Below are positions 1 to 17,106 of a DNA stretch of 17,106 nt, piece by piece. The stretch covers positions 1 through 17,106 of the forward strand of contig LJTR01000041.1 in NCBI GenBank assembly GCA_001303465.1, read 5' to 3'. The notes under the pieces were generated by a model. The model searched no databases, was not told the DNA's origin, and was given only the letters and a program-made list of their open reading frames with translations. The translations under genes and the position numbers were made by a program. Source of the stretch: Phycisphaerae bacterium SG8_4 (lineage in GTDB: Bacteria > Planctomycetota > Phycisphaerae > Sedimentisphaerales > Anaerobacaceae). Numbering within the stretch: the stretch's first letter is position 1; each line of letters opens with the position of its first letter.

Positions 1-2
1 TC

Positions 3-1738: not shown

Positions 1739-1756
1739 CGGCTATCTTGGGGAAAT

Positions 1757-2440: not shown

Positions 2441-2469
2441 GTGTGGTGGTCGCTCGATTGGAGTCGACC

Positions 2470-5400
2470 TCAATTTGCCTTCTTTGGTTTCGCCGGACTA
2501 CTTGTCTTCTTTGTCACCTTCGCCTTGACCTGCCGTCTTTTTTCTTTCGACGCCAGAGGTTCCTTTTCGGGCTCATACTTGCTCTTCAGGACGTCGATCA
2601 ATTTTTTGTAGCCTTTGACCATCGCCTCAAAGCGTTCCATCAAATCGGCGATGACCTTTTGCTTACTCTTCTTCTCCTCATGCGACATCGGCAAGAGCCA
2701 GGTCTCCATGGCTCTGAATTGTTCTTCCAGAACAGACGTCAGCATATTGATGTCTTTCTGAGCCTTCAGCTCGATCGCCGTCTTGGGCACCTTGGATTGC
2801 TCGGCTCGCTGAAGTTTCATTTCGTCGATCATCTCCGACATTCTGCTGAGAACCTGTTGACCGACCTCTCTGAATGCATCCCTCGTCGGTTCTGCGTGCT
2901 CAGCTTCCTTCTTGCTCCTGATATCTGAAATCCCGTCGGCGATAACATCCTTCAAAGATTCCAGCCCGGCGCTAAAGGCGTTCAATTGCCGAATTACCTT
3001 ACCGACATTATCTTCAGCATCGCCGCCCAGCAGAAGATTCCTTGCGAACGTCTTCTTTATGTCTTGCCAGCGTTGAGCCTGCTCGGGCGTCAATCTGCCG
3101 GTGAGCTCTCTGAACTTGAGTAGATTTGACTCGGTGCCTGTGGTAAGCGTTTGAGCATCCTGCTCGTAGGTTGAATAGATCAGGTTCCACAACTCCTGGT
3201 CGTTCATAATCGGCAGGACTCTGCCGGCAATGCGGTTCATGTTTCGATAAGATCCCTGGAGCAGGAATGGCGGCTCGGTCCTGTATTGCTCTGATTGTCC
3301 GGCGGACAGTATGTACTGGCGATTCACCTTCAGGACGACATCGCGGACCACGTAGAGCTTTTTCATTGTGGAGAGATGTTCGTCGAGTTCCTCTGCCGAG
3401 TAGCTGTCCTCAAATTCTATGCCCTCCTGCTGTCCTGTCTCTGCGACGCGCATTATCATGTACACATCGTTCTGGCTTCGACGAGCGAGCTTTTCGAGAA
3501 CAGGGTTCGAGGTCAGGCAGTTCTCAATATAGCTTGCGACGAATTGATCATAGTTGTCGCCGACAATGTCACCGATGTTGTAGACGTCCGCTCTGTTAGC
3601 AAGCATGTCAGGTATCCTGAATCTCTCGCCGCTTTCGGTGTAGGGGTTGCCGGCCATGACGACGCAGACACGCTTGCCGCGCAGATCGTAAGTCTTCGAG
3701 CGCCCTTTGTAGACACCTTCGACCTTTCTCTGGGCGTCGCAGAGCGAAATGAATTTCTGCAGGAATTCTGGGTTTGTGTGCTGAATATCATCGACATAGA
3801 TCATCACGTTATCGCCCATCTCGAAGGCCAGGTTGAGCTTCTTGAGCTCTTGCCTCGATGCGGCATTGGGGGCCTCGTCAGGATCGACGGACGAAACCCT
3901 ATTGCCCACGGCCGGGCCGTTTATCTTGATGAAAGTCAAGCCGAGACGATTGGCAACATATTCCATAAGCGTTGTCTTGCCGTAGCCTGGGGGAGAGATC
4001 AAGAGCAGCAGCCCCTGCCGGTCGGTTCTCTTGTCCTGGCCTTCGCCGCCGATCTGTTTGGCGAGGTTGTCGCCGATCAAAGGCAGATATATCTGGTCGA
4101 TTAGCTTGTTTCGGACAAACGTCGTGAGCACGCGAGGTTGAAATTCTTCGAGATGCAGCTCGTGACTGTAGGTTTCGACCAGTTCGTTCCTGCATCTCTG
4201 ATACTGGTGAAATTTCGGCGCAAACTCCTCATCGTGGCGCCGGAGCTTCTTCATAAAGTGGCAGTAGTTCAGGTCATAGAGCCCATTGCTTATCAACGCA
4301 TGAGTGCCGAGCATCTCGGCGATTTGACGCTCAGTGCTCTCTTCGAGGGCGGCGTCGGACGAGTTTGGCGGCAGAAGCAGCGCCGCAGCTTCATCGGCAT
4401 ATTCGATTCTCGATGCATCGCCGGCGCGCAGAACATACGAGTGTACCCAGTCGCGCAACAGTCTGTAATTGCCCGCGGGATCCGCCGAGACCGCATCGAG
4501 TGAGTTGGTGAATCTGGTGCTGTAATTCTTCTGCTCTATGTGGGATTCAAAGTCGTCTTTTAGGGCGACTGCACACGGATCGATAATGAATTTGTCATCG
4601 CCTGCAAGTTCGTAGAACAAATATTCAGCCGCCTCGTCGATCAAATCAGCATCGAACAGAGCCGTCGTCTCCACAAATTCGGATAGAGAGTCCGCGATTT
4701 GCTCAACATAATTCTCTTGTTTGTCGCTGCCGCCGAACAATTCACCGGCTTGCCCCATGCTCTTAATCTTGGCGTTCAGCAGTTGTTTGCCTTCGTTGTT
4801 CTCGCTCAATTTCCAGAAAACCGTCCCAAGGGCTCTCGCCTGCGTGGAGTACTTCAAAAGGCCAATCCTGCTCCTGAGGTCAACCAGGGCCTTCAGTATT
4901 CTTGCGGCATCGCAGTCGTGCACGCCTTTTACGTAGCCCTCATCATACCGAGGCCCCATATATGCCTGAACTCGACTTAAGACAGCGTCTAGATCCGATG
5001 TTTGAACAAACTCGAGTTCCTCGCAAGCGGCCTCGATCTGGCGGAAGAGCTTGTAGGCAAGATACTCGGCCCTGTAAACATCATTCGTCTCAGAGACGAT
5101 ATTGGAATCCCAGACGTCTCTCGTTTCGTTCAATCGTTCATCGTCTATCCGTTCAAAAAATCCGGTGCCTGTCAGATGAAAATACATATCGTCTTCTTTG
5201 CGGACGATCGTGCCCTCCAGATCCTGACGATTGACCGCAAAACGCTGATTGCCGAGGCGAATGATGTTCTCTCCATCCTCGTAGAGGGCCTGCCTGTCCT
5301 TAAGCTGCCTTATGGAGTCCTGATGTATCGTCTTGAGCTTGCTCTTGAGATCCTCGGCCTTTACGTTGTCGCCGAGGTCGATCAACTGCTGGATAGTCTG

Positions 5401-7827
5401 ACGGATCCTGTCGATCATCAGGTCACCAGCAAAATACCCGTTTATCTCATCTATAGCCGTAAAGCTCTGAATCCGGTTCTGTATGCCTTTTAGAATCCTC
5501 TCCGCCGATGCCATCAGGGCCGATGCCCGCTGGTTGTGCTCGGCTACCAGTTGCACTTTTCTCGACTCAAAGGCATTGTATAATTGCTCTCTCTTTTCAG
5601 CAAGTTGCACAATGAATTGCTCAAAATCCGCGAACTTGCTCTCTAGTGTTTCGAGTTGAACCGTTACCTTCGTAAGATACTCATCGCATTTCTCAGGCGT
5701 GTTGCAGATGTCGAGATAATTGATGACCGACTGGCCAATCAGTTTTAACTGGGAACTGAATTCTGCCTGTCCCTCAATCCTCCCCAGCTCGTTAAGCTTG
5801 TTCTTCAGCGAGGATTTGACCTGATTGACCTGAGAGTAGACCAGCGAAATATTGTCGATAATCGCTATCGTTTCCGTCGCATCGGCAATCTTAAGATTGC
5901 TGACTATGTCTGTCAGCATTTCCAGTTCGTTCGCGGTCTTTTCCACTTCGGATTCGAGTTCTTTTGCCTCGGCAGCCTTGGATACCTGCGGCACCTTCTC
6001 GCCACTGCATTTGATGCTCTCTCGATAGGGATCCAACGACTGGGCTGTAAGAAGAAATTCCGCGCACATCTCCGAGAGCTTGTCGGTATGCTCGGCGACC
6101 TCCTTCTCCAGCGACTCAACGGCCTCGACGTCGGCATACTGCAGGTCTTTGAGCGATATCACTTCGCCCCGCGTGGCGCGCAGCTTCGTCAGGTGCTCGA
6201 CAAATTGATCTATATCGTCTAACTGCTCGTAGTCTATATCGCCGATCATCTCGCGCAAGTTTCGGGCAGTCTCTTCTATTCGCAGGCTGGTATTGCGCTT
6301 GGTCCTAACGACCTTTTCGAATTCATCGACGGCGGCACTTGCGGCCTCGTTTATCTGAGCCAACGGCTGCGACAGAACGAAGGTATCCTTTGAGGCGATC
6401 CAAAAATAGCTGTCTTGAATCTCCTCAGCCTTCTTCGCAACCTCGAGGTACAGGCCCGAATAGACTTCTTCCCGGTCCACGAGATTCATCAGCTCATGGC
6501 ATTCAGCCATGCAGGTGACGATATCTTTGTTGCCGATCTTATAGAGTTCCGAGTCACTCTTAACCGGTATCGAGAAATCCGGGCCATAGTAGGGGGTCTG
6601 CCATATCTGTATGGCATGATGCTTTTTTGCCTCCTCGTCCGCCCTGAAATAGATCAGAGTGCCATCGTCAAAAAACGAATAGCCATTGCACAGGACCGGC
6701 GGGCTGGCCTGTTGTTCGATTATGTTGTACGAAAGGAGAATATAAACGCCGCTGTCGCGATTGTAGAAAATGTACAAGTAATCCTCTCCGTTGGGAGAGG
6801 CGATGCGCTTTTCAAATACCATATCCTCCATTTGGGTCTCAAATTGCTTCAGCGCACCAGTTTGCAGATAATAACCTCTCGGGAAAACAATGCCGTGGTC
6901 TTCCGGGAGCAATACACACGAGTCTTTGATAGCATCGAGCCGCAGCGCTTTCTGCAACTTCTCATTGTAAAGGATGTAGCGAAACTGCCGTTCCTGGTAG
7001 GGCCGGATTTTCATCAGGATAACGTTGCCGACCACGGCATAATAGATCTCGGCGTCATTGAGTGTCTGATCAGGATCATCCACCGGTTCGCAGTAGATTC
7101 CCTCGCCCGTCTCTGTGTTGTCCTCGATCTTTACCGTCAGGTCCCCGCCGATGGTCTCCACAAATACTCTGTCTTCGATTGAAGCGTGCGGATTCCTACC
7201 GCTTCGATGCATGTCCTGAGTCACGCGCCTCCATTCGAATTCGTGCTGCGGTGGAAATACATATTCGTGGTCACTGCGGTTGTCGAGATACTGTATGCTG
7301 TCTTCTCTGATCAACCACTTGAAAGTCTTAACGTCCGAAACGCTCTTTCCGACACGGAACACCATGAACAAATGATTTCCTATGACGGCAAACTTCACAA
7401 ACCTCGTGAGCCTGTAGAACTTGTAGAGATGTTGGAAGTCCTCCTCGAATCGACGGTCAGTGATCAGATCCAGCGCGCAGGGCACAAACGTGCCGTCTTT
7501 CCATTCGTAGACCGAGAAAACATCCTCAAGCGTGGTCTCAGTCCTGAGCCCGATAAACACGTTGTAGCCGAAAATGAACTTGTCAGCGACCGGAACCACA
7601 TCTCGCGGGACGCAGTTGTTCCTGGTGGATATTCTCTTGCTTGACAGGAGTCTGCTTTCGACCGCGCCAAAGACGTCTTTTCTGGCATTGTTGAGTCTCT
7701 GCAGTCTCTGCAGAAGCTCTTTGCTGTGGGCTTTGAGCCGGTTGGTGATTATCTCGTAGGTGCCGCCCTGCAGTTGGACCTTGTCCTGACTTTCGCCCCT
7801 GGCATTGTTCGGGTCGTTCTCTGCCAT
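2470..7827 (-). CDS. Giant (1785 aa) multidomain AAA+ P-loop ATPase of unknown function, with long coiled-coil regions and a Lys-rich C-terminal tail.
   Basis: A single uninterrupted ORF with ATG at 7825-7827 and a GAGAGG Shine-Dalgarno-like element upstream. Walker A is LLLISPPGYGKTTLMEYV and Walker B is VMIYVDDIQH. A sensor-1-like VCVVMAGNP and an RFRIPDMLANRADVYNI segment follow, resembling the ...LPEALLDRFDV sensor region of MoxR/AAA_5 ATPases. A 400-500 residue central region rich in E, K, L and Q is predicted coiled coil. The C-terminus is basic (KEKRRQVKAKVTKKTSSPAKPKKAN). No TM segments are obvious. Confidence 0.8.
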   Translation of the reverse strand: MAENDPNNARGESQDKVQLQGGTYEIITNRLKAHSKELLQRLQRLNNARKDVFGAVESRLLSSKRISTRNNCVPRDVVPVADKFIFGYNVFIGLRTETTLEDVFSVYEWKDGTFVPCALDLITDRRFEEDFQHLYKFYRLTRFVKFAVIGNHLFMVFRVGKSVSDVKTFKWLIREDSIQYLDNRSDHEYVFPPQHEFEWRRVTQDMHRSGRNPHASIEDRVFVETIGGDLTVKIEDNTETGEGIYCEPVDDPDQTLNDAEIYYAVVGNVILMKIRPYQERQFRYILYNEKLQKALRLDAIKDSCVLLPEDHGIVFPRGYYLQTGALKQFETQMEDMVFEKRIASPNGEDYLYIFYNRDSGVYILLSYNIIEQQASPPVLCNGYSFFDDGTLIYFRADEEAKKHHAIQIWQTPYYGPDFSIPVKSDSELYKIGNKDIVTCMAECHELMNLVDREEVYSGLYLEVAKKAEEIQDSYFWIASKDTFVLSQPLAQINEAASAAVDEFEKVVRTKRNTSLRIEETARNLREMIGDIDYEQLDDIDQFVEHLTKLRATRGEVISLKDLQYADVEAVESLEKEVAEHTDKLSEMCAEFLLTAQSLDPYRESIKCSGEKVPQVSKAAEAKELESEVEKTANELEMLTDIVSNLKIADATETIAIIDNISLVYSQVNQVKSSLKNKLNELGRIEGQAEFSSQLKLIGQSVINYLDICNTPEKCDEYLTKVTVQLETLESKFADFEQFIVQLAEKREQLYNAFESRKVQLVAEHNQRASALMASAERILKGIQNRIQSFTAIDEINGYFAGDLMIDRIRQTIQQLIDLGDNVKAEDLKSKLKTIHQDSIRQLKDRQALYEDGENIIRLGNQRFAVNRQDLEGTIVRKEDDMYFHLTGTGFFERIDDERLNETRDVWDSNIVSETNDVYRAEYLAYKLFRQIEAACEELEFVQTSDLDAVLSRVQAYMGPRYDEGYVKGVHDCDAARILKALVDLRSRIGLLKYSTQARALGTVFWKLSENNEGKQLLNAKIKSMGQAGELFGGSDKQENYVEQIADSLSEFVETTALFDADLIDEAAEYLFYELAGDDKFIIDPCAVALKDDFESHIEQKNYSTRFTNSLDAVSADPAGNYRLLRDWVHSYVLRAGDASRIEYADEAAALLLPPNSSDAALEESTERQIAEMLGTHALISNGLYDLNYCHFMKKLRRHDEEFAPKFHQYQRCRNELVETYSHELHLEEFQPRVLTTFVRNKLIDQIYLPLIGDNLAKQIGGEGQDKRTDRQGLLLLISPPGYGKTTLMEYVANRLGLTFIKINGPAVGNRVSSVDPDEAPNAASRQELKKLNLAFEMGDNVMIYVDDIQHTNPEFLQKFISLCDAQRKVEGVYKGRSKTYDLRGKRVCVVMAGNPYTESGERFRIPDMLANRADVYNIGDIVGDNYDQFVASYIENCLTSNPVLEKLARRSQNDVYMIMRVAETGQQEGIEFEDSYSAEELDEHLSTMKKLYVVRDVVLKVNRQYILSAGQSEQYRTEPPFLLQGSYRNMNRIAGRVLPIMNDQELWNLIYSTYEQDAQTLTTGTESNLLKFRELTGRLTPEQAQRWQDIKKTFARNLLLGGDAEDNVGKVIRQLNAFSAGLESLKDVIADGISDIRSKKEAEHAEPTRDAFREVGQQVLSRMSEMIDEMKLQRAEQSKVPKTAIELKAQKDINMLTSVLEEQFRAMETWLLPMSHEEKKSKQKVIADLMERFEAMVKGYKKLIDVLKSKYEPEKEPLASKEKRRQVKAKVTKKTSSPAKPKKAN

Positions 7828-7877
7828 CCTCAGCCTCTCACAAAATCACCAGCCACACCCATTCGACTTCGCTCAGA

Positions 7878-7908
7878 GCCTGCCCTGAGCTTGTCGAACG
7901 GGGCAGGC
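7878..7908. promoter_or_regulatory. GC-rich inverted repeat (8-bp stem, 15-nt loop) in the 89-nt spacer between the flotillin and giant ATPase genes.
   Basis: GCCTGCCC (7878-7885) pairs with GGGCAGGC (7901-7908). It is not followed by a U-tract on the - strand transcript. It could be an RNA stability or processing element, or an attenuator. Confidence 0.25.
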
Positions 7909-7916
7909 CCAGCGGT

Positions 7917-9905
7917 TTACAGCCCCAGTTCCTTGACGGGCTTGTTCGCCATGCCAAGATCCTTGACGGTACTCAGCAGGTTGCTCAAAACGCCCTTGTT
8001 CTCTTTGTCGGATTTTGCTATCAGTTTGGCAACCAACGCTGAAATTGTAAGGTTCTTAATGTCTTCGGACTTCAATCCGAACTGAGAGACAAACCGTCTG
8101 ATCTGCTGTGCTGTGGTCTGCTCATCGGAGCCGATCAGGCTTTCCTTGAGATCGGTCAGCACGCCACTGTTGTTGACCGCTCTGTCCACACTCTTGCCGG
8201 TCGTTATGGCATTGACCAGCCGTTCGAAGAACTGGTTCTCGCCGCCAATGATTTCGATGTTGGCCGCCTTGAGTGCTTCAGCCACTATCTTGGCCTGCTC
8301 GGCCGCAATCTCTTTCCTGATGTTTATTTCAGCAAGTTCGATTTCCAGGTCCTTGTTGAGTCGCAGTTTGAATTCCTCGTGCTCTTTTCCGACTGCGTCA
8401 AATATCTTCATGGCCTCGGCCTTATCTCGGATGCCGTCGGCGTCGGCATGGTACTTCAACTCGAGGACCTTTGCTTCGGCAGTACCCTCCTTCTCAAGTG
8501 CAACAGCCTTTGCCTCCATCACTTCGGCCTCCGCCGTGCCCGCAACGGCATGTTCTTTCACAGAAGCCAGCGCGAGTGACTTCTTTGCCGCGGCGTTCTT
8601 CTCCGCCGCCTTGAGATTCGCATCGGCATCTATCAGTTTCTGTTCGGCGTAGAATTCCTCGGCCTTCTTCGCAGCCTCTGCGGCTTTGATGTCTTTGACG
8701 AGTGCCTGCTCGGCTTCTTCCTCGGCCTTTGTGATCTGTACGCTCTTGTGACGTTCGGCGGTCGCAAACTCCCGCGTATCCTTGATCTTCTCTTCCTCTG
8801 TCACGACGGTCTTCTCAACCATCACCCTCTCGCGGATGACAGCCTGCAGCTCCTTTTTCTCCGCCTCGACCGCTTTTTCCTTGTCGACCTGAGCTATCGA
8901 CACTACGCGTTCTCGCTCGGTGGCCTCCAACCCTCTGTCTCGCTCGACTCGCTCCAGTTCGATGGCGTCCGTACGCTCCTTGTTTCTTGTGGCGACGATA
9001 ACCTGCCGCTGCTTGTTTTGCTCGGCAACGAAGATTTCTTCCTCGGCGCTTATTCTAGCCTTCTCCGCCTTCTCTCGCTCGGCCTCCTGGACCCTCTTCG
9101 TCTCGGCCTCTTCTCTGGCCTGAATCGAGGCGATTTCGCGTTTCTGTTTTGCATCCGCCTCGGCCAGTTGCTTGTTAAGCTCAAGTATCGCTTCGTCGGC
9201 CTCTACGTTCTGTTGTGTGATGGTCTTGTCTTTTTCACGCTCGCGATCATTGGCCAGCTCATACTGTTCGGCGGTCAGCACAGTAATCTTCTTGATACCC
9301 TCGGCATCGAGGATGTTGTCGGGATTAAGCAGCTTCTTGTCAGTCTGCTCGAGGTAGTCGATGGCCGCATCCTCGAGGACATAGCCGCTCAGGTCGGTTC
9401 CAATCACTTCGAGTATCTGCTCTCGGAACCGCACACGGTCGGTATACAGTTCGACGAAGTCAAACTGCTTGCCGACTGTCTTGAGGGCTTCGGAGAACTT
9501 CGCATCGAACAGCTCGACCAATGCCTGGCGGTCGGAGGCTCTCTCACAACCCAGCGACTGAGCGACCTTGATTACGTCTTCGACCGTGTTATTGACCCGA
9601 ACAAAGAATGCGACCACGATATCCGCGCGAAGATTGTCTTTGCAGACAAGACCCTGCACGGCGCGCCGGTCGATCTCGATCCGCTTGACCGATACATCCA
9701 TGTATTCGACGCGGTGCATTATCGGTATTACGAACTTGCCTGAAAAGCTGACCTGAGTTCCGCCGACACCGTTTCGAATCAGGGCCTGCCCTTGCGACAC
9801 CTTCTTGTAACACTTGAGAAGTAAAGCAAAGAAGCCCGTGCCGACGATGGCTAAGACAACTACAGCTACAATGAATAATTCTTGTGCAAATGCAAGCATG
9901 GTCAT
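7917..9905 (-). CDS. Flotillin-like SPFH/band-7 protein (YqiK/FloT-like), 662 aa.
   Basis: N-terminal membrane hairpin LFIVAVVVLAIVGTGFFALLL. An SPFH-like region follows (GGTQVSFSGKFVIPIMHRVEYMDVSVKRIEIDRRAVQGLVCKDNLRADIVVAFFVRV). Then comes a very long Glu/Ala/Lys-rich coiled coil (EAEKKELQAVIRERV..., AEEEAEQALVKDIKAAEAAKKAEE) typical of flotillins. The ATG at 9903-9905 overlaps the NfeD stop TGA (ATGA). The ATG at 9897-9899 (third residue) has better spacing from the GGAG. Confidence 0.9.
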   Translation of the reverse strand: MTMLAFAQELFIVAVVVLAIVGTGFFALLLKCYKKVSQGQALIRNGVGGTQVSFSGKFVIPIMHRVEYMDVSVKRIEIDRRAVQGLVCKDNLRADIVVAFFVRVNNTVEDVIKVAQSLGCERASDRQALVELFDAKFSEALKTVGKQFDFVELYTDRVRFREQILEVIGTDLSGYVLEDAAIDYLEQTDKKLLNPDNILDAEGIKKITVLTAEQYELANDREREKDKTITQQNVEADEAILELNKQLAEADAKQKREIASIQAREEAETKRVQEAEREKAEKARISAEEEIFVAEQNKQRQVIVATRNKERTDAIELERVERDRGLEATERERVVSIAQVDKEKAVEAEKKELQAVIRERVMVEKTVVTEEEKIKDTREFATAERHKSVQITKAEEEAEQALVKDIKAAEAAKKAEEFYAEQKLIDADANLKAAEKNAAAKKSLALASVKEHAVAGTAEAEVMEAKAVALEKEGTAEAKVLELKYHADADGIRDKAEAMKIFDAVGKEHEEFKLRLNKDLEIELAEINIRKEIAAEQAKIVAEALKAANIEIIGGENQFFERLVNAITTGKSVDRAVNNSGVLTDLKESLIGSDEQTTAQQIRRFVSQFGLKSEDIKNLTISALVAKLIAKSDKENKGVLSNLLSTVKDLGMANKPVKELGL

Positions 9906-10588
9906 TTCTCCAATTCTAACGGTGCAATTGTATATGTTCCCTTTTCATTGTCCTTTCCAACTATCACCGCCTCATCGCCCTTGTGAAATACGTGCGCACC
10001 GTCTGAAATCACGTTAAGAACAATGGGGGCTCCCTTGGTCTTGACTTCGGCTTGCCCCATCTTGTCTGAAACCGAGGTTGTCACGACAGTGCAAATGCGA
10101 CCTATGACTTTCCTTGGGGCGTTGTAGTCCTTGTTGAACATTTCGTAGACTTTCTTAAGCGGCATGGCAAAGATCCTGCAAATAAAAAGACTCGCTACTA
10201 AGCTTATCGCGTATACCGGCACGGCGAGAAGTAATGAACTGCCCGGATTGAAGTAATGGTTGCCGAACATGCACAGCATCCACATACTCAGGATCAGAAT
10301 GCTGGACAGCAGCATGATCGGCACCTCGCCGACATAGAAGAAATGCATGATCGAACGCAGAACGCCGTGCTGACTCATATCAAGGTCGAGGTCGCCCTCC
10401 GCATCGACATCGACATCCACGTCAACGTCGCCGCCCGCCTCAAGGCCGGAATCGAAGAGTTCAACATCAAGAAAGTCAACATCCAGCGCACCCAGAATGA
10501 CGGTGATCCAGTAAATCACGTTCAGGATCAAGAGAACCGTCACAACTGCGTTTACCGGCGAAAAGGCAGTTTGGATCAAGTCAATCAT
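9902..10588 (-). CDS. NfeD/YqiJ-like membrane protein (228 aa); the usual partner of SPFH/flotillin proteins.
   Basis: Three predicted TM helices (VVTVLLILNVIYWITVILGAL, IMLLSSILILSMWMLCMFG, LLLAVPVYAISLVASLFICRIFA) and a C-terminal soluble beta-rich domain (GRICTVVTTSVSDKMGQAEVKTKGAPIVLNVISDGAHVFHKGDEAVIVGKDNEKGTYTIAPLE) resembling the NfeD OB-fold. It lies immediately upstream of flotillin, the same gene order as yqiJ-yqiK and yuaF-floT. It contains an acidic (DV)n stretch. Coordinates are taken from the ORF track. Confidence 0.75.
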   Translation of the reverse strand: MIDLIQTAFSPVNAVVTVLLILNVIYWITVILGALDVDFLDVELFDSGLEAGGDVDVDVDVDAEGDLDLDMSQHGVLRSIMHFFYVGEVPIMLLSSILILSMWMLCMFGNHYFNPGSSLLLAVPVYAISLVASLFICRIFAMPLKKVYEMFNKDYNAPRKVIGRICTVVTTSVSDKMGQAEVKTKGAPIVLNVISDGAHVFHKGDEAVIVGKDNEKGTYTIAPLELEK

Positions 10589-10606
10589 CTCATGGCCCCT
10601 TCGGTT

Positions 10607-11281
10607 CTACTGCTGCTTCTCCTCCAGCAGGTCCTTCATCGCCTCTAACTCGGCCTCAACCTGCAGGTCTCTGGATCTCTCGGCAAGTTGAATATCGGTC
10701 AGGGCGTCACTGTGGATTTCCTGCCGTATCTCCACTTCCGCTTCGGTCTGCAGGACTTCATCTTCAAGGCGATCGAAAGCGACCCCTTCTCCACTCACTG
10801 CCGCCGTTTTGTCTAAATGTTGTTCGAAGGCGTTCTGAGCTTCCGCGACTCTCTTTCTCGCTCTCAGATCCTGCAGTTTCAATTTCGCAGCCTTTAACTG
10901 CTCCTGCAGCTTCACGATGTTGTCACGCAAAACATCGTATGTCTTGCAGCCGTGTTCGACGCCCGGTTGAATCTGGCTGATCCGCTCGGCGAGCTTGACT
11001 TTTTCAGTCAGGGCCTTGCGAGCCGCCTCTTCGTCGCCCGCCTTGAGGGCTCTCTCGGCCTTGGCCTTCAACTCATCCTGTTGGGCCTTGAGCTGCTCAA
11101 GCTCTCGTTGCATGCGCTTGAATGTCGCCCCGTATGATGCGGCACTCTCGCGACCTTCCAGCACGGTCTCCTCAAGCTCTTTGATCTTTGACTCAAGTTC
11201 TTGTTCTGGAGGTTCGACCTTGTCCAGAAGCCAGTTTATGTTGGCTTTTGTGATTCTTCGCATTCTATCGAATATGGACAT
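10607..11281 (-). CDS. pspA: PspA/IM30-family protein, paralog 2, the one closest to canonical PspA.
   Basis: MSIFDRMRRITKANINWLLDKVEPPEQELESKIKELEE closely parallels the E. coli PspA N-terminus. GAGGAG lies 8 nt upstream of the ATG. The protein is all helical coiled coil and ends ...LLEEKQQ. Confidence 0.9.
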   Translation of the reverse strand: MSIFDRMRRITKANINWLLDKVEPPEQELESKIKELEETVLEGRESAASYGATFKRMQRELEQLKAQQDELKAKAERALKAGDEEAARKALTEKVKLAERISQIQPGVEHGCKTYDVLRDNIVKLQEQLKAAKLKLQDLRARKRVAEAQNAFEQHLDKTAAVSGEGVAFDRLEDEVLQTEAEVEIRQEIHSDALTDIQLAERSRDLQVEAELEAMKDLLEEKQQ

Positions 11282-11371
11282 TTCTCTATCTCCTCATTTC
11301 TCGGACCATAGGCGTAACAAATCAAAAGACTAAGAAATCATCTCAAAGACAAGTCAGACGCGGGACGGATT

Positions 11372-12070
11372 CTATTGCCCGCCGCCTTCTGTCTCACCAG
11401 CCTTTTGCCTAAGTTCGGCCAGACGTCTGTCAATTTCTGCCTCGTTGCTCAATTCCTGAAGTCTCTTCTCCAATGAGGCGCTCGCCGTCCCCTCGCCCGT
11501 GAAGCTTGCCTGGATTTCAAGCTCCGCCTCGGCCTCTTCGATTTTGGCTTCCAGTCGTGCGACTGCGTCAAGAATGCTGTCACCGGAACCGACCGTGCCA
11601 GAAACAGTGCTCTGGATCTTCTTCTGAACCTTGGCGACTCTTGCGCGGGTCAGTATCTCCTCCTTTTTGGTGCGAAGCTCTGCGAGCTGCTCCTGGATCC
11701 TCTTGCGTGACAGCGTCGCCCGCTCAAGAGAGCCTTGGGCTATTTCAAGATTCTTTTGTGAGAAGTCTGAAGCACGCTCTGCCTGAATCTGGGCATCGAG
11801 AGCCTGTCGGGCGGTCTCCTCATCACCCTTCTGCAGCGCCATGTAGGCACCGTCTCCGTACTTGTCGATCGTAGCCTTGTGCTTCTGGACTTCGCGTTCG
11901 GAATGCTTGACTGTCGCGGTGGCTTTGGCTTCGGCCTCGGTGGCAGCTTCGAGCTGTTCTTCCATCTCCTTGACCAAAACAGGAAAAACAAGCTCAGGAT
12001 CTTCAAATCTGCTTAGAAATGCCTCAATCTTACCTACGGTGACGCGGTGCAAACGTGTGAAAAGTCCCAT
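11372..12070 (-). CDS. pspA: PspA/IM30-family protein, paralog 3 (232 aa from the preferred start).
   Basis: MGLFTRLHRVTVGKIEAFLSRFEDPELVFPVLVKEMEEQLEAATEAEAKA...QKGDEETARQALDAQIQAE. The start at 12070 is preferred over the ORF-track 12094 because AGGAG lies 6 nt upstream and the N-terminus is then canonical. It is more similar to paralog 1 than to paralog 2. Confidence 0.9.
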   Translation of the reverse strand: MGLFTRLHRVTVGKIEAFLSRFEDPELVFPVLVKEMEEQLEAATEAEAKATATVKHSEREVQKHKATIDKYGDGAYMALQKGDEETARQALDAQIQAERASDFSQKNLEIAQGSLERATLSRKRIQEQLAELRTKKEEILTRARVAKVQKKIQSTVSGTVGSGDSILDAVARLEAKIEEAEAELEIQASFTGEGTASASLEKRLQELSNEAEIDRRLAELRQKAGETEGGGQ

Positions 12071-12120
12071 TGCTCTCTCCTTTCCGGCTTCCACTAAAGT
12101 ATTTAGAGAATTACCGACGA

Positions 12121-12138
12121 CGGAGGGACGATTCCCTC
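12121..12138. promoter_or_regulatory. Perfect 7-bp palindrome GGAGGGA-cgat-TCCCTCC in the leader about 50 nt upstream of PspA paralog 3.
   Basis: Read directly from the sequence. It is either a leader-RNA hairpin containing a GGAGGG pseudo-Shine-Dalgarno sequence or a dyad operator for a DNA-binding regulator. Confidence 0.2.
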
Positions 12139-12325
12139 CTTATCGTTATACCCTTGAGGGTAGTAAATCCTCGCGAGCAAGATCATAAACTGTTGTTGTA
12201 AAACCACTTGCCCGCGGAATAACGGGAACTTTCAATCGGGATCACTACAACAATGCCCATAAGACATTATCCCGGCATCTCATATGTGTAAAGAACAAAG
12301 TTGCGAACTCTTTCTGGACTCCTGC

Positions 12326-12343
12326 CCCCGCGCAGGCGCGGGG
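12326..12343. terminator. GC-rich hairpin CCCCGCG-cagg-CGCGGGG (7-bp stem, 4-nt loop) in the 415-nt intergenic region; a possible U-tract-less terminator or RNA structure.
   Basis: Read directly from the sequence. It lies about 170 nt downstream of the lipoprotein stop in the - strand direction. No adjacent T-run on either strand, so intrinsic-terminator function is uncertain. Confidence 0.25.
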
Positions 12344-12510
12344 TCGTCATTTCAATGGCCCACCTAAAATCGCTTGTCTCATCGCTACTACATAGACTAC
12401 TTCTGGCTGCAAGAAATTCAATGATTCTTAGAAAAATTTTGCTCTTTCGCTAAGGTGATATGGAGCAGCTCTTTGGCTGCTGCGCCAATATGCCGATCGA
12501 GACCGAACTG

Positions 12511-12690
12511 CTACTCTCTAACACGCTCGATATCCTCCCATCGATCCCAGCTTTCATTTGGGTTTCCGTGTATCCTGCGATCGTCCTCCATTTGACGTTC
12601 CAGCCACAGAGACTCTGTCCGGTCACAGCAGGATGAACATCCTGGCAGCAACACTGTCAGAAATAGAATAATGATCATCAGAATCTTCAT
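12511..12690 (-). CDS. Small (59 aa) putative lipoprotein.
   Basis: The ATG at 12688-12690 is preceded by GGAGAGGAGG. The signal peptide MKILMIIILFLTVLLPG|CSSCC has a lipobox-like LPGC. The mature part is short, acidic and Trp-rich (ESLWLERQMEDDRRIHGNPNESWDRWEDIERVRE). The ORF-track start at 12735 adds 15 residues with no RBS. Confidence 0.5.
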   Translation of the reverse strand: MKILMIIILFLTVLLPGCSSCCDRTESLWLERQMEDDRRIHGNPNESWDRWEDIERVRE

Positions 12691-12777
12691 AGTACCTCCT
12701 CTCCGGCACGCAGCATTTAGCACTCGACAGTTCACCTCGTGATATGCAGCGGCGCTAAGCCGATTCTGGACTTGACT

Positions 12778-14226
12778 CTATTGATCAACAGTGCTTTCAT
12801 CGGGTGAAAGCTCACTGTCGCCGCTCCTTGCCTGTCCAGCTGCATTATCCATCAGTATCCGTTCGTGATGGCGCATTGCGCCGAGCGCGACCTCACAGGG
12901 AAAGGTAAACAGCTGAAACGACTCGGCTGAGATCCTGTCCTCGTCGAGGTCTTCGAGCACTCTTCTAAATATGTCAAAGAGTTTCTGGCGGACCTCGCGA
13001 AGCTCATGAATGTTCTCGATCTTGCGTGCCTGCTCGATAAGGCCCAGAATCTCCAGGTTGTACATGTCTGCCCGGTTCTTCTGTCGCTGCTGGAGACGCA
13101 ATCGAATGTGCCATATCCCGGATGCACACAGAACGATAACGGAAAGAAACAGCGCCAGAGGCTCTGCATATGTCACTATGAAGGCCGGTCTTTCACGGCG
13201 ATAGAAAGCCTTGGCGCCGGCGTGCAGGGGCACACCAAGGTCCTGGCTTGAACCGGCCAGTCGCATAGTGGCCGCACGAGGGTTTTCTGCCATCAGTTTG
13301 TTGCGATGTTCATACAGGATCTTTGTGATTACCCTGATGGCCTCTTTGTCGACTCGCTTGTGGGTTAGCAGGAGCGCTTGGACCGAAACCGAAGGAACGT
13401 CCTTCTCCGGTACGGCCGGCTCACCCCAGAATGCCGCTCTGTGGATAGCCGCGTCCGCCACGTACGGATACCATGTTCGGACGGCGTTGGCGTCAATGGC
13501 AAGCAGTCCGGCAGGCCTGTTGCTCTGCCTCAGCAGTCTGCTCATGCACTGGTTGCCGACTGCTATGAATGTGATAATTGCATCTACTTCGTTGCGAAGA
13601 AACGCATCATTGGCATCTTCAAGGCTGAGGACCTTGGAAACCGTGAGTTCATCTTCCATGCCGTAGCGCTCGACAAACCTGTAAAAGAAGGAGCCGTGGT
13701 CGTTAGGATCTGCCTCTTCGCCTAGGAGACTAGACATCACCGCAATACGTTTACCTCTGAGTCCACCGATGCTCTCGATTTCTTGGTCAGCTACAAGGTG
13801 GAGAATTTCCGGGAACAACGAAGCGACCCCCTGAACCGACGGCTTTGTCAGCGTATCATCCTGAACAATGGCAAGCTCGACTTCGCCATCTTCTAGCAGC
13901 TGCATGTTTCTGCAAGATCCGGGCGTTGGTTTGGTCTCAATTCGCACCCTCTTTTGATTATCGTTGATTACCTGTTTGAGGGTCTCGCCAAACGCGTAGT
14001 ATTCTCCGCCCTTTCCTGCTGTCGCCAGGGTTATCGACACGGGCGAATGCACGCGGATCAATTTCACTGCGAAAACCACAACCATCACGATACTTGCCAG
14101 TGCAATTGTGGCAATCAGCCTGGCGTAGAGAGATGTCCCTTCCTTGCCCTGTGGAGCTCGTGATCGCCCGGTAATCCATCGCAGCAGCGACGAGATGGTA
14201 CCGGCAAGGCTTCTAAATATTCGCAT
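12778..14226 (-). CDS. Membrane protein carrying a periplasmic TAXI-family (TRAP-associated) solute-binding domain between two TM helices, plus a cytoplasmic helical C-terminal domain; sensor or receptor-like.
   Basis: The ATG at 14226 (MRIFRS...) has AAGGAG 8 nt upstream; the ORF-track start at 14247 is TTG. TM1 is IATIALASIVMVVVFAVKLI. The TAXI signature is ATAGKGGEYYAFGETLKQV...PGSCRNMQLLEDGEVELAIVQDD...LRGKRIAVMSSLLGE. TM2 is LALFLSVIVLCASGIWHI. About 115 cytoplasmic residues follow (QQRQKNRADMYNLEILGLIEQARKIENIHELREVRQKLFDIFRRVLEDLDEDR...). No kinase or permease domain is present. Confidence 0.75.
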   Translation of the reverse strand: MRIFRSLAGTISSLLRWITGRSRAPQGKEGTSLYARLIATIALASIVMVVVFAVKLIRVHSPVSITLATAGKGGEYYAFGETLKQVINDNQKRVRIETKPTPGSCRNMQLLEDGEVELAIVQDDTLTKPSVQGVASLFPEILHLVADQEIESIGGLRGKRIAVMSSLLGEEADPNDHGSFFYRFVERYGMEDELTVSKVLSLEDANDAFLRNEVDAIITFIAVGNQCMSRLLRQSNRPAGLLAIDANAVRTWYPYVADAAIHRAAFWGEPAVPEKDVPSVSVQALLLTHKRVDKEAIRVITKILYEHRNKLMAENPRAATMRLAGSSQDLGVPLHAGAKAFYRRERPAFIVTYAEPLALFLSVIVLCASGIWHIRLRLQQRQKNRADMYNLEILGLIEQARKIENIHELREVRQKLFDIFRRVLEDLDEDRISAESFQLFTFPCEVALGAMRHHERILMDNAAGQARSGDSELSPDESTVDQ

Positions 14227-14335
14227 AGGTGTTGCTCCTTTTGTCAAGCATCTGTGCGGAGTTCTCAGTCAACGTCTTGTAGTCACTCATACAGGAAAGC
14301 ACTACTGACGATTCTTTCGCCCATTGAGGCCCTCT

Positions 14336-15097
14336 CTATGTCATCTGATCCACAGTCTGTGCGGCCTTGTCCACAACATTCATGAATCTACTATAAAGCT
14401 CCTCTGCGTCTTTTGGCGGTAATGAGGTGTCACGATCACGCAGATCGCTGACATCTCGGAGCGTGCCGGCATCGAGATCAAGTTTCTCAGCCGCAACATC
14501 GACAATCTCGTCTCTCGAAGGTAAATCCTGCCCAGTGAGAGATACGACCACACGCAGCGTTTCAAGAAGACCACCAATTGCCCGCGACATCATCTGGGTC
14601 AGCGCCCGGCCACTTGCCATTATGTAATGCCGGCGCATACGAAGCAGAAGGTTCTTGATCTGCTGCTCGCATCGCAAGCGCAGGTGCTCGCGACCGATCT
14701 TGAGGTTTCCGAGCAGATCCGAACCTGACAGCACTCTGTACGATTCCTGCATGGCAAGGAATTTAACTGGAAACACATCTGCCGATGAACGCAGATTCAT
14801 CTCGGTGATGAAGAAGGGGGCAATGCCGTGACGGCGTCCTCGCAAAACCGGATCCAGTACCTTCTTCAGGATAGGCACGTCAATGCGCTCAAGAACGACG
14901 AGAATATTGATGTCACTCTTGCCCGGCCTGTAGTCGTTGCGGGCAGCACTCCCGTAAAGACAGATGCACTTGACGTCAATATCTGATATGTCACTTAGAG
15001 TACGACAGAGTGCTGTAAGTGAGTCCTTCTCTTGTTCTGAGAGCTTTGTTCCCGACAGGTCACTTGGTTCGTTCATTTTGTTTCCCTTCACAATCAC
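14336..15097 (-). CDS. Polbeta-superfamily nucleotidyltransferase, about 246-253 aa, similar in size and architecture to KNTase/ANT(4') (N-terminal NTase domain plus C-terminal helical domain).
   Basis: The NTase motif is hG[GS]x9-13Dh[DE]h: CICLYGSAARNDYRPGKSDINILVVL. Candidate starts are GTG at 15097, 10 nt after the radical-SAM stop, or ATG at 15076 with AAGGGAAA upstream. It is co-directional with, and tightly spaced after, the radical-SAM gene. Confidence 0.8.
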   Translation of the reverse strand: MIVKGNKMNEPSDLSGTKLSEQEKDSLTALCRTLSDISDIDVKCICLYGSAARNDYRPGKSDINILVVLERIDVPILKKVLDPVLRGRRHGIAPFFITEMNLRSSADVFPVKFLAMQESYRVLSGSDLLGNLKIGREHLRLRCEQQIKNLLLRMRRHYIMASGRALTQMMSRAIGGLLETLRVVVSLTGQDLPSRDEIVDVAAEKLDLDAGTLRDVSDLRDRDTSLPPKDAEELYSRFMNVVDKAAQTVDQMT

Positions 15098-15106
15098 GTG
15101 AGCATA

Positions 15107-16168
15107 TTACTTTTTGACCAATTGGCTGTACACGGATCTTTTGCTGACGCCACCTCGGGAGCCACCCTCTGATCTTCTTTTGATATGCGCCAACAACCCG
15201 GATCGGCCTTGAACGGATCGCCGCTCGTTGCGTAGGAGAGACACTTTAGACAAGAGGTCACTGTGGTAGTATAGTTCAGCGAGCGGCGTTTCGGTGAGGT
15301 TCCCCACACGAATCGGCATGCGACGACATGGGTAGAGGTCGCCGTTAGCCTGGACCGTCAGAAGTGAATCGCCGGCAGTGCAGTGATAGGGTCTGCCGCC
15401 TGCCACGAGGAACTGAAGGGCCCGGTGCATTGCGATTTCGGTTCTCCCGAACCAGCGGCGCCTCGCCTGATTGCGGGCCTTGAGCATAGTCTCGAAGAAC
15501 TCTCGTGTTTCATCGGGCGTGAGCATCTGCTCGTGCAAACTCGAGCCGCTCCCTGTAGGGATGAGCCGGTCAGCCCAGAGGCGTGAGATTCTGAGCTTGC
15601 TTGCCAGCCGGGCAACCTCGGCAAACTCCCGGAAGTTGTCACGATGGGCCGTAAACGAGATGAAGGTTTCGATGCGCTCTGCCCTCAGAGATCTCACCGC
15701 CGCAACTGTTCGATCAAAGTTGCCTGGCCCGCGAATTCTGTCATGCGTTTCATGCGTACCTTCGATGCTCACCTGCACAAAGGCCGGGCCCAATCTGCGC
15801 AGCCGTCTGGCCATAACTGTATCGATGAAGCTCCCATTGGTGAGGATTGCAAAGCTGAAGTTCTCTCGCTTGGCCGCGAAAACCTCAAGCAAATCCAGAA
15901 AGTCCCGGCGAATAAAGGGCTCACCGCCGGTTACAGTCACATGTCCTCGAACCCGGCGTCCGCAGTCCTGTCTCCATGATTTCAGCAGATCAGTGAACTG
16001 ATCCAACACTTTGAGCAACTGCTTGAATCCGAGTTCAAGGCCGGCGTACTTGTCCTGGTAGCAGTGGGCGCACCTGAGGTTACATTGCTCAGTCAGGTGC
16101 CATTGAAGCAGCAATCCCGGCGGCACGTATCGCTCTTGACAACATATCCTCACTGTTTCCGTACTCAT
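15107..16168 (-). CDS. Radical SAM enzyme with a C-terminal twitch/partial-SPASM auxiliary-cluster motif; a putative peptide-maturase.
   Basis: The true start is ATG at 16166-16168 (MSTETVRICCQERY...), preceded by GGAGGA 9 nt upstream. CX3CX2C is CNLRCAHCY, followed by GGEPF. The C-terminal motif is CTAGDSLLTVQANGDLYPC (CX13GX4C). The ORF-track N-terminal extension MRGRLWRRRWLWRRW... is an alternate-frame reading of the upstream gene's GGC-rich tail and is not real. Confidence 0.9.
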   Translation of the reverse strand: MSTETVRICCQERYVPPGLLLQWHLTEQCNLRCAHCYQDKYAGLELGFKQLLKVLDQFTDLLKSWRQDCGRRVRGHVTVTGGEPFIRRDFLDLLEVFAAKRENFSFAILTNGSFIDTVMARRLRRLGPAFVQVSIEGTHETHDRIRGPGNFDRTVAAVRSLRAERIETFISFTAHRDNFREFAEVARLASKLRISRLWADRLIPTGSGSSLHEQMLTPDETREFFETMLKARNQARRRWFGRTEIAMHRALQFLVAGGRPYHCTAGDSLLTVQANGDLYPCRRMPIRVGNLTETPLAELYYHSDLLSKVSLLRNERRSVQGRSGLLAHIKRRSEGGSRGGVSKRSVYSQLVKK

Positions 16169-16173
16169 CAGGA

Positions 16174-17070
16174 CTATCCTCCACAACCACCACATCCGCC
16201 ACAGCCGCCGCCACCACAGCCACCGCCACCGCCGCCACAGCCACCTCCTCCTCCACAGCCGCCCCCGCAACCTCCATCGAAGTGACCACTGTGTCTGTCG
16301 GTCGCCGAAAGAACCGCCGTGCCAAAGATCGCGACGGAGAAGACAGGATTAACTTCGGAACTTCTCCAGAACCAATCGTGAGAGGTCGGCCTTCTTGGGC
16401 GGCCAAAGTGCCCTTTGAGGGCCTTGAGATAGCGACGTCCCAGTCGGGTCAGTTCAGTCCAGGGTTTCAAGGTAGCACACAGTACGATCAATGAAACGGG
16501 CAGCAGAACGGCGAGAAAGGTCGAAGGTTTTTGGCGTGTAATTCCCAGGTAGAGCTTCGTTCCTCCCACGGCCCCAATCACCAGAGCCGCGGCCAGCGCG
16601 ATCGCCCATGCCCGAGTCCTCTGGGCAGCGGTTCGCGTCAGATTCAGATCTGCAAATTCCTTATTGGTCGGTTCGAGCAGCCGTTCAATTGTCTCCTGAA
16701 GACCGGCAATGCGGGATACGGCTTGCGGGCTTGTCGATTTCTGCAGGCATTCGTAGACCGCCTTTTCAAAAGGATTCAAGAGCACTCTTCGCGCCGGTGC
16801 ATTTGTGGCCTCAAGTTCATCGTTGTAGATCTCGATTATCTTGCGGTCGCGCAGACTGAAGGCTGCGGTCTGGATCACTGCGGCCGGCCCTCCGCGCAGT
16901 GCCGCAATGGCAAATGGGTCAAAGCGGGCCAGATCCGGAAGAGGGCAGGAACCGGTACCGTCTGCATTGACGCACGCCCAGCTGCCGGCGATGCAGACAG
17001 CCGACAGGCCTGTAAAAACCAACAGAAAGGTCGGTCCCGGAATTCTCTTGAGCATCTCCACGGGCAGCAC
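16174..17070 (-). CDS. Polytopic membrane protein (at least 293 aa) with a C-terminal Gly/Cys low-complexity tail. It is possibly 5'-partial because the frame is still open at the window edge.
   Basis: Hydrophobic helices: TFLLVFTGLSAVCIAGSWA, AWAIALAAALVIGAVGG, FLAVLLPVSLIVLCATL, VFSVAIFGTAVLSA. The tail is HFDGGCGGGCGGGGGCGGGGGGCGGGGCGGCGGCGG, with stop TAG at 16174-16176. The ATG at 17055 (MLKRIPGP...) gives a signal or TM-like N-terminus. The GTG at 17070 is the ORF-track start. No in-frame stop occurs upstream through 17106. Confidence 0.8.
   Translation of the reverse strand: MLPVEMLKRIPGPTFLLVFTGLSAVCIAGSWACVNADGTGSCPLPDLARFDPFAIAALRGGPAAVIQTAAFSLRDRKIIEIYNDELEATNAPARRVLLNPFEKAVYECLQKSTSPQAVSRIAGLQETIERLLEPTNKEFADLNLTRTAAQRTRAWAIALAAALVIGAVGGTKLYLGITRQKPSTFLAVLLPVSLIVLCATLKPWTELTRLGRRYLKALKGHFGRPRRPTSHDWFWRSSEVNPVFSVAIFGTAVLSATDRHSGHFDGGCGGGCGGGGGCGGGGGGCGGGGCGGCGGCGG
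16177..16275. repeat. Imperfect (GGN/TGY)n low-complexity tract encoding the Gly/Cys tail. It causes spurious Pro-rich (+ strand) and Trp/Arg-rich (- strand) ORFs in the other frames.
   Basis: The tract ccacaaccaccacatccgccacagccgccgccaccacagccaccgccaccgccgccacagccacctcctcctccacagccgcccccgcaacctcc uses mixed Gly codons (GGA, GGT, GGC, GGG) and both Cys codons (TGT, TGC). The protein sequence is therefore conserved without the DNA being a pure microsatellite. Confidence 0.7.
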
Positions 17071-17106
17071 GTATTCAGCTTCAACCCGCTCGGATGACTC
17101 AAATTC

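Follow-up and report, generated by a model that had tools for sequence, protein, structure and literature searches.

Gene content of the locus

The DNA analysed here, referred to as the window, is a stretch of 17,106 nucleotides (nt) from Phycisphaerae bacterium SG8_4 (assembly GCA_001303465.1, contig LJTR01000041.1, positions 1 to 17,106), and the element under study is a module of three co-directional genes on its minus strand. Reading of the open reading frames (ORFs) of the window showed that these genes encode a membrane protein of the TIGR04222 family ending in a Gly/Cys tail, a radical S-adenosylmethionine (radical-SAM)/SPASM enzyme, and a protein with the ANT/KNTase-type nucleotidyltransferase (NTase) fold (Table 1). 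The closest relatives are annotated as Planctomycetota metagenome-assembled genomes (MAGs). The stop codon of the membrane-protein gene (TAG, 16174-16176) and the ATG of the radical-SAM gene (16166-16168) are separated by a spacer of 5 nt, and the final Gly codons of the tail, GGA GGA (16177-16182), form a Shine-Dalgarno-like GGAGGA 8 nt ahead of that ATG. The original radical-SAM frame and the NTase gene share the sequence GTGA, which holds the TGA of the one and the GTG of the other, and an identical 4-nt overlap was found in the related contig L003. The spacer with its GGAGGA and the GTGA overlap point to translational coupling of the genes. Positions 12000-17106 were also scanned for promoters and terminators; the counts were at chance level, leaving the operon boundaries undefined.

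The membrane protein matched the NCBIfam model TIGR04222 with 114.8 bits (cut-off 43), its residues 21-254 covering model positions 4-228 of 229, and it also matched the Pfam family DUF2207_C weakly. An initial annotation of this DNA had correctly named TIGR04222, and its description of a membrane protein with a Gly/Cys tail lying 5 nt from the ATG of a radical-SAM enzyme with a CNLRCAHC motif was confirmed by direct reading. A total of 1395 homologs of the membrane protein were found; the TIGR04222 family has been reported to count over 3,500 members in NCBI nr at <90% identity and to occur mostly in Actinomycetota (PMC12452194).

Sequence and conservation of the Gly/Cys tail

Seven cysteines, not the eight that were initially counted, are present in the tail (GGCGGGCGGGGGCGGGGGGCGGGGCGGCGGCGG), and its Gly codons are mixed (GGC 11, GGT 8, GGA 7 and GGG 1). 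Compared with relatives of 98% and 88% DNA identity, the tail differs solely by in-frame changes and synonymous codons, and the out-of-frame variation that the initial annotation had named as the mark of a degenerating microsatellite was not seen among these relatives. The mixed Gly codons and the in-frame-only variation mark the tail as a selected peptide, not a decaying microsatellite.

Among the 120 best of the 1395 homologs (24-86% identity), which span Planctomycetota, Cyanobacteria, Desulfobacterota, Bacillota and archaea, 118 were found to have a C-terminal Gly/Cys tail, in which Ser at times also occurs; its last residues are almost always ...CGGGGCGGCGG. Conservation of the tail pattern across homologs, which had been raised as a point to check, was thereby established, and on this count the Gly/Cys tail is a hallmark of the family, far beyond chance. 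By analogy with SbtA, the Gly/Cys tails were also searched for in-frame TGA (selenocysteine) codons, and none was found in any locus. A longer version of the radical-SAM ORF with a TTG start (15107..16270, minus strand; MRGRLWRRRWLWRRW..., MRGRLWRRRW...) was rejected as a gene model: its Arg/Trp-rich extension reads the tail in another frame, and the orthologs start at MSTETV. Artefacts of this kind recur in loci L011 and L041, and the extension could mislead gene callers.

A deletion in the radical-SAM gene of the window

The radical-SAM protein of the window matched PF04055 (80.8 bits, cut-off 29.5) and PF13186 (SPASM, 28.9 bits) and is 94% identical at the amino-acid level to an intact ortholog, P0121. 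When the window was compared with the related contigs L003, L001 and L002, 74 nt were found to be missing from it; the lost stretch encodes RALRDRSRVVDGCQGCFYSQLCRGG, and the frame is shifted. The window protein departs from its orthologs after ...LYYHSDLL, beyond which CxxCx5C...C is present in all eight aligned orthologs, and the frameshifted ORF continues to a stop at 15107. Three SPASM cysteines (CxxCx5C) are removed by the deletion and two more are lost by the frameshift, while the first two stay in frame. The seven-Cys SPASM motif CX9-15GX4C...CX2CX5CXnC...C is thus incomplete in the window copy, whereas P0121 has all seven cysteines. From these alignments, the enzyme family is one with a full seven-Cys SPASM domain, of which the window copy is damaged. 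The CX13GX4C twitch-type auxiliary-cluster motif reported in the initial annotation turned out to be an artefact of the deletion, and membership of a twitch subfamily was rejected; the truncation is confined to the window contig, and the eight aligned orthologs and three related contigs carry the full motif. A Pol-beta-type NTase had likewise been placed 10 nt further on; a borderline match to PF01909 was found, and the spacer measures 9 nt and belongs to the frameshifted ORF.

The module is probably inactive in the window, because the SPASM domain carries a 74-nt frameshifting deletion, unless that deletion is an assembly error. We regard as evenly balanced the possibility that the window locus is a decaying remnant, in which the deletion would be real, the enzyme without activity, and the membrane protein left unmodified or modified in trans by another enzyme. 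The loss of three SPASM cysteines with a frameshift of two more fits such decay, as do the absence of the deletion from the three related contigs and the otherwise close alignment of the remaining DNA, L003 being 98-99% identical to the window over 8.6 kb with just one further gap (L001 and L002 are 88% identical). The membrane-protein and NTase genes, however, are intact, the NTase being 100% identical to P0241, and a single indel in a metagenome assembly can equally be an artefact of assembly or of strain mixture. The original frame downstream of the deletion is also still fully open, which suggests that the event is either recent or not real.

Genes linked to the radical-SAM enzyme

Hundreds of homologs of the radical-SAM enzyme were found at 62-94% identity, and one genome per species was taken for the locus scan, giving 80 loci in which ORFs were called and searched with hidden Markov models (HMMs) built from homolog sets. 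A TIGR04222-like or Gly/Cys-tailed ORF lay within 2.5 kb of the radical-SAM ortholog in 64 of the 80 loci, and in 56 of 67 when both flanks were at least 1 kb long. The neighbour was a TIGR04222-like gene in 57 of the 80 loci, usually immediately upstream of the enzyme gene and overlapping it, and a divergent or short membrane protein bearing the same tail in 7 further loci. The tail was kept in 52 of the 57 TIGR04222 genes, and although the membrane protein (24-86% identity) is far less conserved than the enzyme (62-94%), the tail pattern is retained.

The radical-SAM loci came from at least 10 phyla, with hosts among Desulfobacterota, Planctomycetota, Nitrospinota, Thiotrichales, Verrucomicrobiota, Chloroflexota, Acidobacteriota, Bacillota and archaeal MAGs, the last being a Candidatus Methanogaster MAG (isolate label ANME2) and an unclassified archaeon. 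With the pair conserved so widely, the initial proposal that the target of the radical-SAM enzyme is the tail of a membrane protein and not a free peptide is very probably right. The trio of neighbours was conserved in part: the link to the membrane protein was seen in 64 of the 80 loci, and the NTase-fold gene is a recurrent accessory, found in 31 of the 80 and invariably along with the membrane protein. With N for NTase, T for TIGR04222 and R for radical-SAM, the gene orders N-T-R, T-R-N, T-N-R, R-N-T and divergent were observed.

In two loci (L046 and L083), small unrelated membrane proteins beside the enzyme end in the same Gly/Cys tail. In two others, L038 (6974-10148) and L041 (7712-10101), the radical-SAM orthologs (58-61% identity) stand not beside a membrane protein but beside one to three short peptides, which share a conserved leader-like region (YVEPxVLATYSKEELEExIRPHG) and have Gly/Cys cores (GGCGPGCG and GCGGGCGCGCGGGCG); they are followed by an HprK-related kinase, and the peptides matched no NCBIfam model. 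Because these orthologs pair with free Gly/Cys peptides, the Gly-Cys motif is the common feature of the products of the genes neighbouring the enzyme. An exception to this substrate pattern was observed in L040, L045 and L059 (Albibeggiatoa/Thiotrichaceae), where the immediate upstream neighbour is a membrane protein of about 77-93 amino acids with an acidic Cys-free tail (...NSTFGIDDDDDEDFDD...).

Alternation of the radical-SAM enzyme with MNIO

Linkage was also examined from the side of the substrate, in 15 TIGR04222 loci comprising six homologs chosen for their long contigs and nine loci from a scan of metagenome contigs for the tail pattern with GGCGGCGG, which yielded at least nine confirmed loci. 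A maturase was found nearby in all 15, the radical-SAM enzyme in 8 and an MNIO, which is an oxygen-dependent iron enzyme, in 7. The radical-SAM version was found in L085-L090, L099 and L095, among which are Heliobacterium undosum and a Methanobacteriota archaeon; the copy in L095 is divergent and lies 1.7 kb downstream. The MNIO version was found in L084 (Nostoc sp. PCC 7107, with three tandem TIGR04222 genes), L091-L094, L100 and L101. An NTase-TIGR04222-MNIO arrangement, in which the NTase gene precedes the TIGR04222 gene, occurs in L091, L093, L094 and L096; in L096 the MNIO scores best against BufB (250 bits), with HvfB second. No match to MNIO (PF05114) was found among the window ORFs tested.

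A study from 2025 proposed that MNIO (DUF692) enzymes act on TIGR04222 proteins as their substrates, and it placed the MNIOs linked to these proteins close to those of bufferins and oxazolins (Microb Genom 2025, PMC12452194). The family and its MNIO link are thus already published, and the initial annotation had not made this connection. The main text of that paper mentions neither radical-SAM partners nor the NTase-fold gene of TIGR04222 clusters, and in the searchable literature no paper was found on a radical-SAM enzyme in the place of the MNIO, on an NTase-fold partner common to both, or on variants with free peptides. The substrate is conserved, and often so is its partner, while the accompanying enzyme is one of two unrelated oxidative types; this pattern is read here as non-orthologous displacement.

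Family placement of the radical-SAM enzyme

The radical-SAM enzyme was compared with NCBIfam, and the best 25 of 75 matches were considered. Every one of them lies far below its own cut-off, and the enzyme belongs to none of the sactisynthase, anSME, SbtM and ACGX families. The top match for the window enzyme and its intact orthologs was SbtM (TIGR04082, cut-off 350 bits), with 142.7 bits for the window and 161.3 bits for P0121 over model positions 199-515 only, and MftC scored highest for the L038 ortholog. Scores for other families were equally short of membership, with 65 against 349 bits for anSME, 123 against 265 for MftC and 152 against 400 for the ACGX family (TIGR04340). Membership in the sactisynthases, PqqE or GrrM was likewise not found, GrrM being absent from the best 25 of the 75 matches. 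Similarity to SbtM taken alone is weak evidence for the chemistry, since the scores are far below threshold and ACGX, TIGR04053 and MftC follow close behind. About 24 amino acids precede the core of the enzyme, and no extra domain, such as the recognition element (RRE) of ribosomally synthesised and post-translationally modified peptide (RiPP) systems, was found.

The NTase-fold protein

The match of the third protein to PF01909 is borderline (23.9 bits, cut-off 21); it is the only Pfam match, and no NCBIfam model scored above its cut-off. The ATG at 15076 may be the true start, because most homologs are 246 amino acids long. The family is small, with 110 matches. An AlphaFold model (predicted local distance difference test, pLDDT, 94.6) has a two-domain ANT/KNTase architecture, and Foldseek retrieved ANT(4')/KNTase structures (1kny, 1kan and 6nmk) with TM-scores of 0.61-0.65, AadA with an E value of 4e-6, and also AAD(9) and HalB. 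The KNTase-like size and architecture noticed in the initial annotation are in agreement with this result, and its suggestion that the protein nucleotidylates the tail fared less well. The catalytic motif hG[GS]x9-13Dh[DE]h is replaced by YGS...SD(I/V)N, in which the first Asp is kept in 43 of 59 family members, while 50 of 59 have Asn in place of the second metal-binding carboxylate; for this reason canonical nucleotidyl transfer is doubtful. Since no RRE-like domain was found in the radical-SAM enzyme, and since the NTase-fold protein occurs with either type of enzyme, it may plausibly act as an adaptor or chaperone.

A MntA/HEPN type VII toxin-antitoxin assignment was rejected; MntA scored 18.2 bits against a cut-off of 60, and an adjacent HEPN gene is absent. 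Distant NTase homologs (26-38% identity) were observed in L097 (5001-7290) and L098 (5001-7206); next to them come TPM-domain proteins whose C-terminal tails are rich in Gly and Phe (GGGFGGGFGG...GGGW), with LemA after these. A more general link may exist between the NTase fold and membrane proteins with Gly-rich tails.

Predicted topology of the membrane protein

Three transmembrane (TM) segments were placed by an AlphaFold model (pLDDT 83.7) together with hydropathy, TM1 at about residues 12-35, TM2 at 148-178 and TM3 at 184-201. Between TM1 and TM2 lies a soluble helical domain with a beta-hairpin (residues ~36-147), for whose helix-helix-hairpin element a structural search gave no significant match. 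TM3 is followed by a Lys/Arg-rich loop (residues 202-240; mean of 6.75 Lys/Arg across 77 homologs), a short hydrophobic 'AIFG' segment (240-262) modelled as two short helices (242-249 and 252-262), and the disordered tail. By the positive-inside rule, the loop preceding the last hydrophobic segment is on the cytoplasmic side. If the 'AIFG' segment spans the membrane, the tail would be outside the cell, and if it does not, the tail would be cytoplasmic; a crude hydropathy scan detected only three TM segments in 28 of 111 homologs.

The tail of TIGR04222 proteins has been placed outside the cell, and bufferin precursors carry Sec signal peptides, a partner protein having been proposed to shield them until the modifications are installed (PMC12452194). 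A periplasmic tail, which the initial annotation had taken to speak against its proposal, is not decisive, since these Sec-exported precursors are modified. Modification by a cytoplasmic enzyme would be possible under either topology, given that the tail is synthesised last and that the shielding of bufferins offers a precedent.

Proposed function and alternative explanations

We propose that the module is a protein-tethered, RiPP-like maturation system. The cysteines of the C-terminal (Gly)n-Cys tail would be the substrate of the adjacent radical-SAM/SPASM enzyme, which would act as an O2-independent functional equivalent of a BufB-like MNIO. Each Gly-Cys unit would undergo four-electron oxidation and cyclisation to a 5-thiooxazole, and the product would be a membrane-anchored string of heterocycles chelating soft metals (Cu(I)-type). 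The NTase-fold protein would be an accessory common to both versions; given the degeneracy of its catalytic motif, its part may be to bind or present the substrate rather than to transfer a nucleotide. As the best explanation of the whole, combining tail maturation, an MNIO-equivalent enzyme, a 5-thiooxazole chelator and an NTase accessory, this is held with moderate confidence, and its parts differ in strength. That the tail is the substrate of the radical-SAM enzyme is likely; that the product is a 5-thiooxazole is tentative and falls a little short of even; and metal binding as the function of the module leans further to the doubtful side. The more general proposal, that a radical-SAM clade distributed over many phyla is the anaerobic replacement of BufB-type MNIOs, with both making a poly-5-thiooxazole chelator and a degenerate NTase presenting the substrate, is similarly conjectural.

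The chemistry is argued mainly from the enzyme swap and the Gly-Cys-Gly substrate. In MNIO systems that have PME-type 1 partners (bufferins, oxazolin and others), Cys is turned into 5-thiooxazole, a heterocycle that binds Cu(I) and Cu(II) very tightly by chelation (PMC11626156, PMC13097082). The radical-SAM/SPASM enzyme SbtM forms the same heterocycle at Gly-Cys/selenocysteine in GGUG, via the carbonyl of the preceding Gly (PMC9204691), and the motif of the window tail, GGCGG, is compatible with it. The 5-thiooxazole is favoured because it is the sole modification demonstrated for both the MNIO and the radical-SAM enzyme classes.

Several observations weigh against this proposal. The radical-SAM gene of the window itself is broken. 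No tailed neighbour was found in 16 of the 80 radical-SAM loci; some of the 16 are truncated by a contig end, and in others the neighbour is a small membrane protein without Cys. Nor does SbtM stand out clearly as the nearest family (161 bits for SbtM, 152 for ACGX and 146 for TIGR04053, all far below cut-off), and the N-terminal extension of SbtM, about 200 model positions, has no counterpart in the window enzyme. Were the 'AIFG' segment a true TM helix, the tail would be external, and a cytoplasmic enzyme would have to act before insertion. The division of the two versions by oxygen is a tendency only, Nitrospina and Pirellulaceae among the hosts of the radical-SAM version being aerobes or microaerophiles.

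Installation of sactionine or ranthionine thioethers, from the sulphur of tail Cys to the alpha-carbon of Gly, which would give a rigid crosslinked tail, was the chemistry first suggested for this locus and is unlikely. Many SPASM peptide maturases do form Cys thioethers, the substrate is Cys-rich, and weak HMM similarity to SkfB, StsB, PapB and AlbA was found, but these four score below SbtM, ACGX and MftC, and all of them far below cut-off. The pair of NTase and TIGR04222 protein is moreover served elsewhere by a BufB-like MNIO, and the MNIO chemistries listed in PMC12452194 do not include a sactionine-type thioether; a product shared with the MNIO route would argue against thioether crosslinks, which makes them less probable than oxidation of Cys to a heterocycle. 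Still less probable is that the tail is an unmodified Gly/Cys segment, serving as a metal or Fe-S ligand or as a linker like the TPM/DUF2207 tails, with the neighbouring radical-SAM or MNIO enzyme acting on another substrate or elsewhere in the protein: the membrane protein weakly matches DUF2207_C, distant NTase homologs stand beside TPM-domain proteins with Cys-free Gly/Phe tails and LemA, and C-proximal Cys is reported to be missing from over a quarter of TIGR04222 proteins and an MNIO from a third of TIGR04222 genomes (PMC12452194), but all 15 tailed loci have one of two Cys-modifying enzyme types nearby, the free peptides of L038 and L041 resemble the membrane protein solely in their Gly/Cys core, and the unrelated small membrane proteins of L046 and L083 share the tail.

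Overall, the outline of a protein-tethered, RiPP-like system drawn in the initial annotation has stood, the enzyme subclass that it assigned was wrong, and its chemistry and NTase role are probably wrong as well. TIGR04222 is a large uncharacterised family whose sole previous functional lead is the proposed MNIO modification. The alternation of enzymes at the same substrate offers an independent argument for the tail cysteines as the real target; it also gives a testable product prediction (5-thiooxazole) and a tractable enzyme pair, with two unrelated routes to one heterocycle, and it places a radical-SAM clade and an NTase-fold family, neither of them named, in a genomic context. If the proposed tail maturation holds, the biology of thiooxazole metallophores would take in anaerobes and archaea as hosts and, beside free peptides, proteins anchored in the membrane, and the two enzymes would form an aerobic/anaerobic pair like FGE/anSME for the RiPP-type modification of a full-size membrane protein.

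Surroundings of the module in the window

The features of the window are listed in Table 1. The genes downstream of the module, from the NMT1_3/TAXI-like gene to the last PspA/IM30 gene, are syntenic in L003, and the arrangement is not kept with the module beyond close relatives, so these surroundings are treated as a lineage-specific neighbourhood. A functional link between the module and the PspA/DUF3686 genes was rejected; PspA was found near the enzyme in 1 of the 80 loci, about 7 kb away and on the opposite strand. Homologs of the NMT1_3/TAXI-like protein adjoin the module in L002 and L003, and more distant ones occur in L012 and L026; L002, L012 and L026 are annotated as Planctomycetota. 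In L001 (1984-5731), an 88%-identical relative, three tandem TIGR04222-like genes lie upstream of the radical-SAM gene; one of them encodes a form of 484 amino acids that faintly matches a zinc ribbon. Because the window breaks off at 17106, a short way upstream of its TIGR04222 gene, further paralogs may be cut off.

Table 1 Features of the 17,106-nt window
Feature	Position	Strand	Basis or remark
TIGR04222 membrane protein, 298 amino acids	16174..17070	minus	NCBIfam TIGR04222
Gly/Cys tail GGCGGGCGGGGGCGGGGGGCGGGGCGGCGGCGG, 33 amino acids, 7 Cys	16177..16275	minus	direct reading and codon table; putative modification substrate
Radical-SAM/SPASM gene, 5' part in original frame	15252..16168	minus	ATG 16168, CNLRCAHC, first two SPASM cysteines (YHC...GDLYPC)
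74-nt deletion junction	15250/15251	minus	DNA alignment, blastn coordinates, protein alignment
Original 3' frame of radical-SAM gene, LKCLSYATSGDPFKADPGCW...NMLT*	15094-15250	minus	ORF 15094..15309; matches the P0121 C-terminus
NTase-fold protein, 253 amino acids (GTG) or 246 amino acids (ATG 15076)	14336..15097	minus	N-terminal Pol-beta-type domain YGS...SDIN, C-terminal helical domain
NMT1_3/TAXI-like protein	12778-14247	minus	directly downstream of the NTase gene
PspA/IM30 paralogs (three)	11372-12094, 10607-11281, 1757-2473	minus	
YqiJ_N-like membrane protein	9902-10588	minus	
662-amino-acid protein	7917-9905	minus	without Pfam match
1785-amino-acid protein, DUF3686 + DUF7902 + AAA ATPase	2470-7827	minus	
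384-amino-acid ORF	584-1738	plus	without Pfam match

Comparison with known systems

The TIGR04222-MNIO systems (PMC12452194) share with the window module the same substrate family, a Cys-containing low-complexity tail and the idea that the tail of a full-size protein is the substrate; such systems were confirmed at L084, L091-L094, L096, L100 and L101, whereas the window has a radical-SAM/SPASM enzyme instead. SbtM/SbtA (TIGR04082) resembles the module in its radical-SAM/SPASM class and in a Gly-Cys/selenocysteine-Gly motif similar to GGCGG, but the module enzyme scores 143-161 bits against 350 with the first ~198 model positions unmatched, its putative substrate is the tail of a 300-amino-acid membrane protein and not a free peptide, and the tails are without selenocysteine codons. 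The ACGX-repeat system (TIGR04340) was the second-best NCBIfam match, and its substrates also have repeated Cys-Gly units; the scores, however, are 128-153 bits against a cut-off of 400, and the ACGX substrate is a free repeat peptide. The likeness to the bufferins (BufA/BufB/BufC) lies in the proposed conversion of Cys to 5-thiooxazole, the proposed copper binding in the envelope and the BufB-like MNIOs beside TIGR04222 homologs; bufferins are soluble peptides of small size that are exported by Sec and have DUF2063-RRE proteins as partners, while the window module has a membrane-anchored putative substrate, another enzyme class and an NTase-fold accessory. The NTase-fold protein itself shares a Pol-beta NTase domain followed by a helical domain with the ANT/KNTase enzymes (AadA, ANT(4') and AAD(9)) and with HalB of Hailong (Foldseek E values of 4e-6 to 1e-4), from which it differs in its 10-16% identity, its D-x-N motif and its context in a putative maturation module rather than in resistance or defence.

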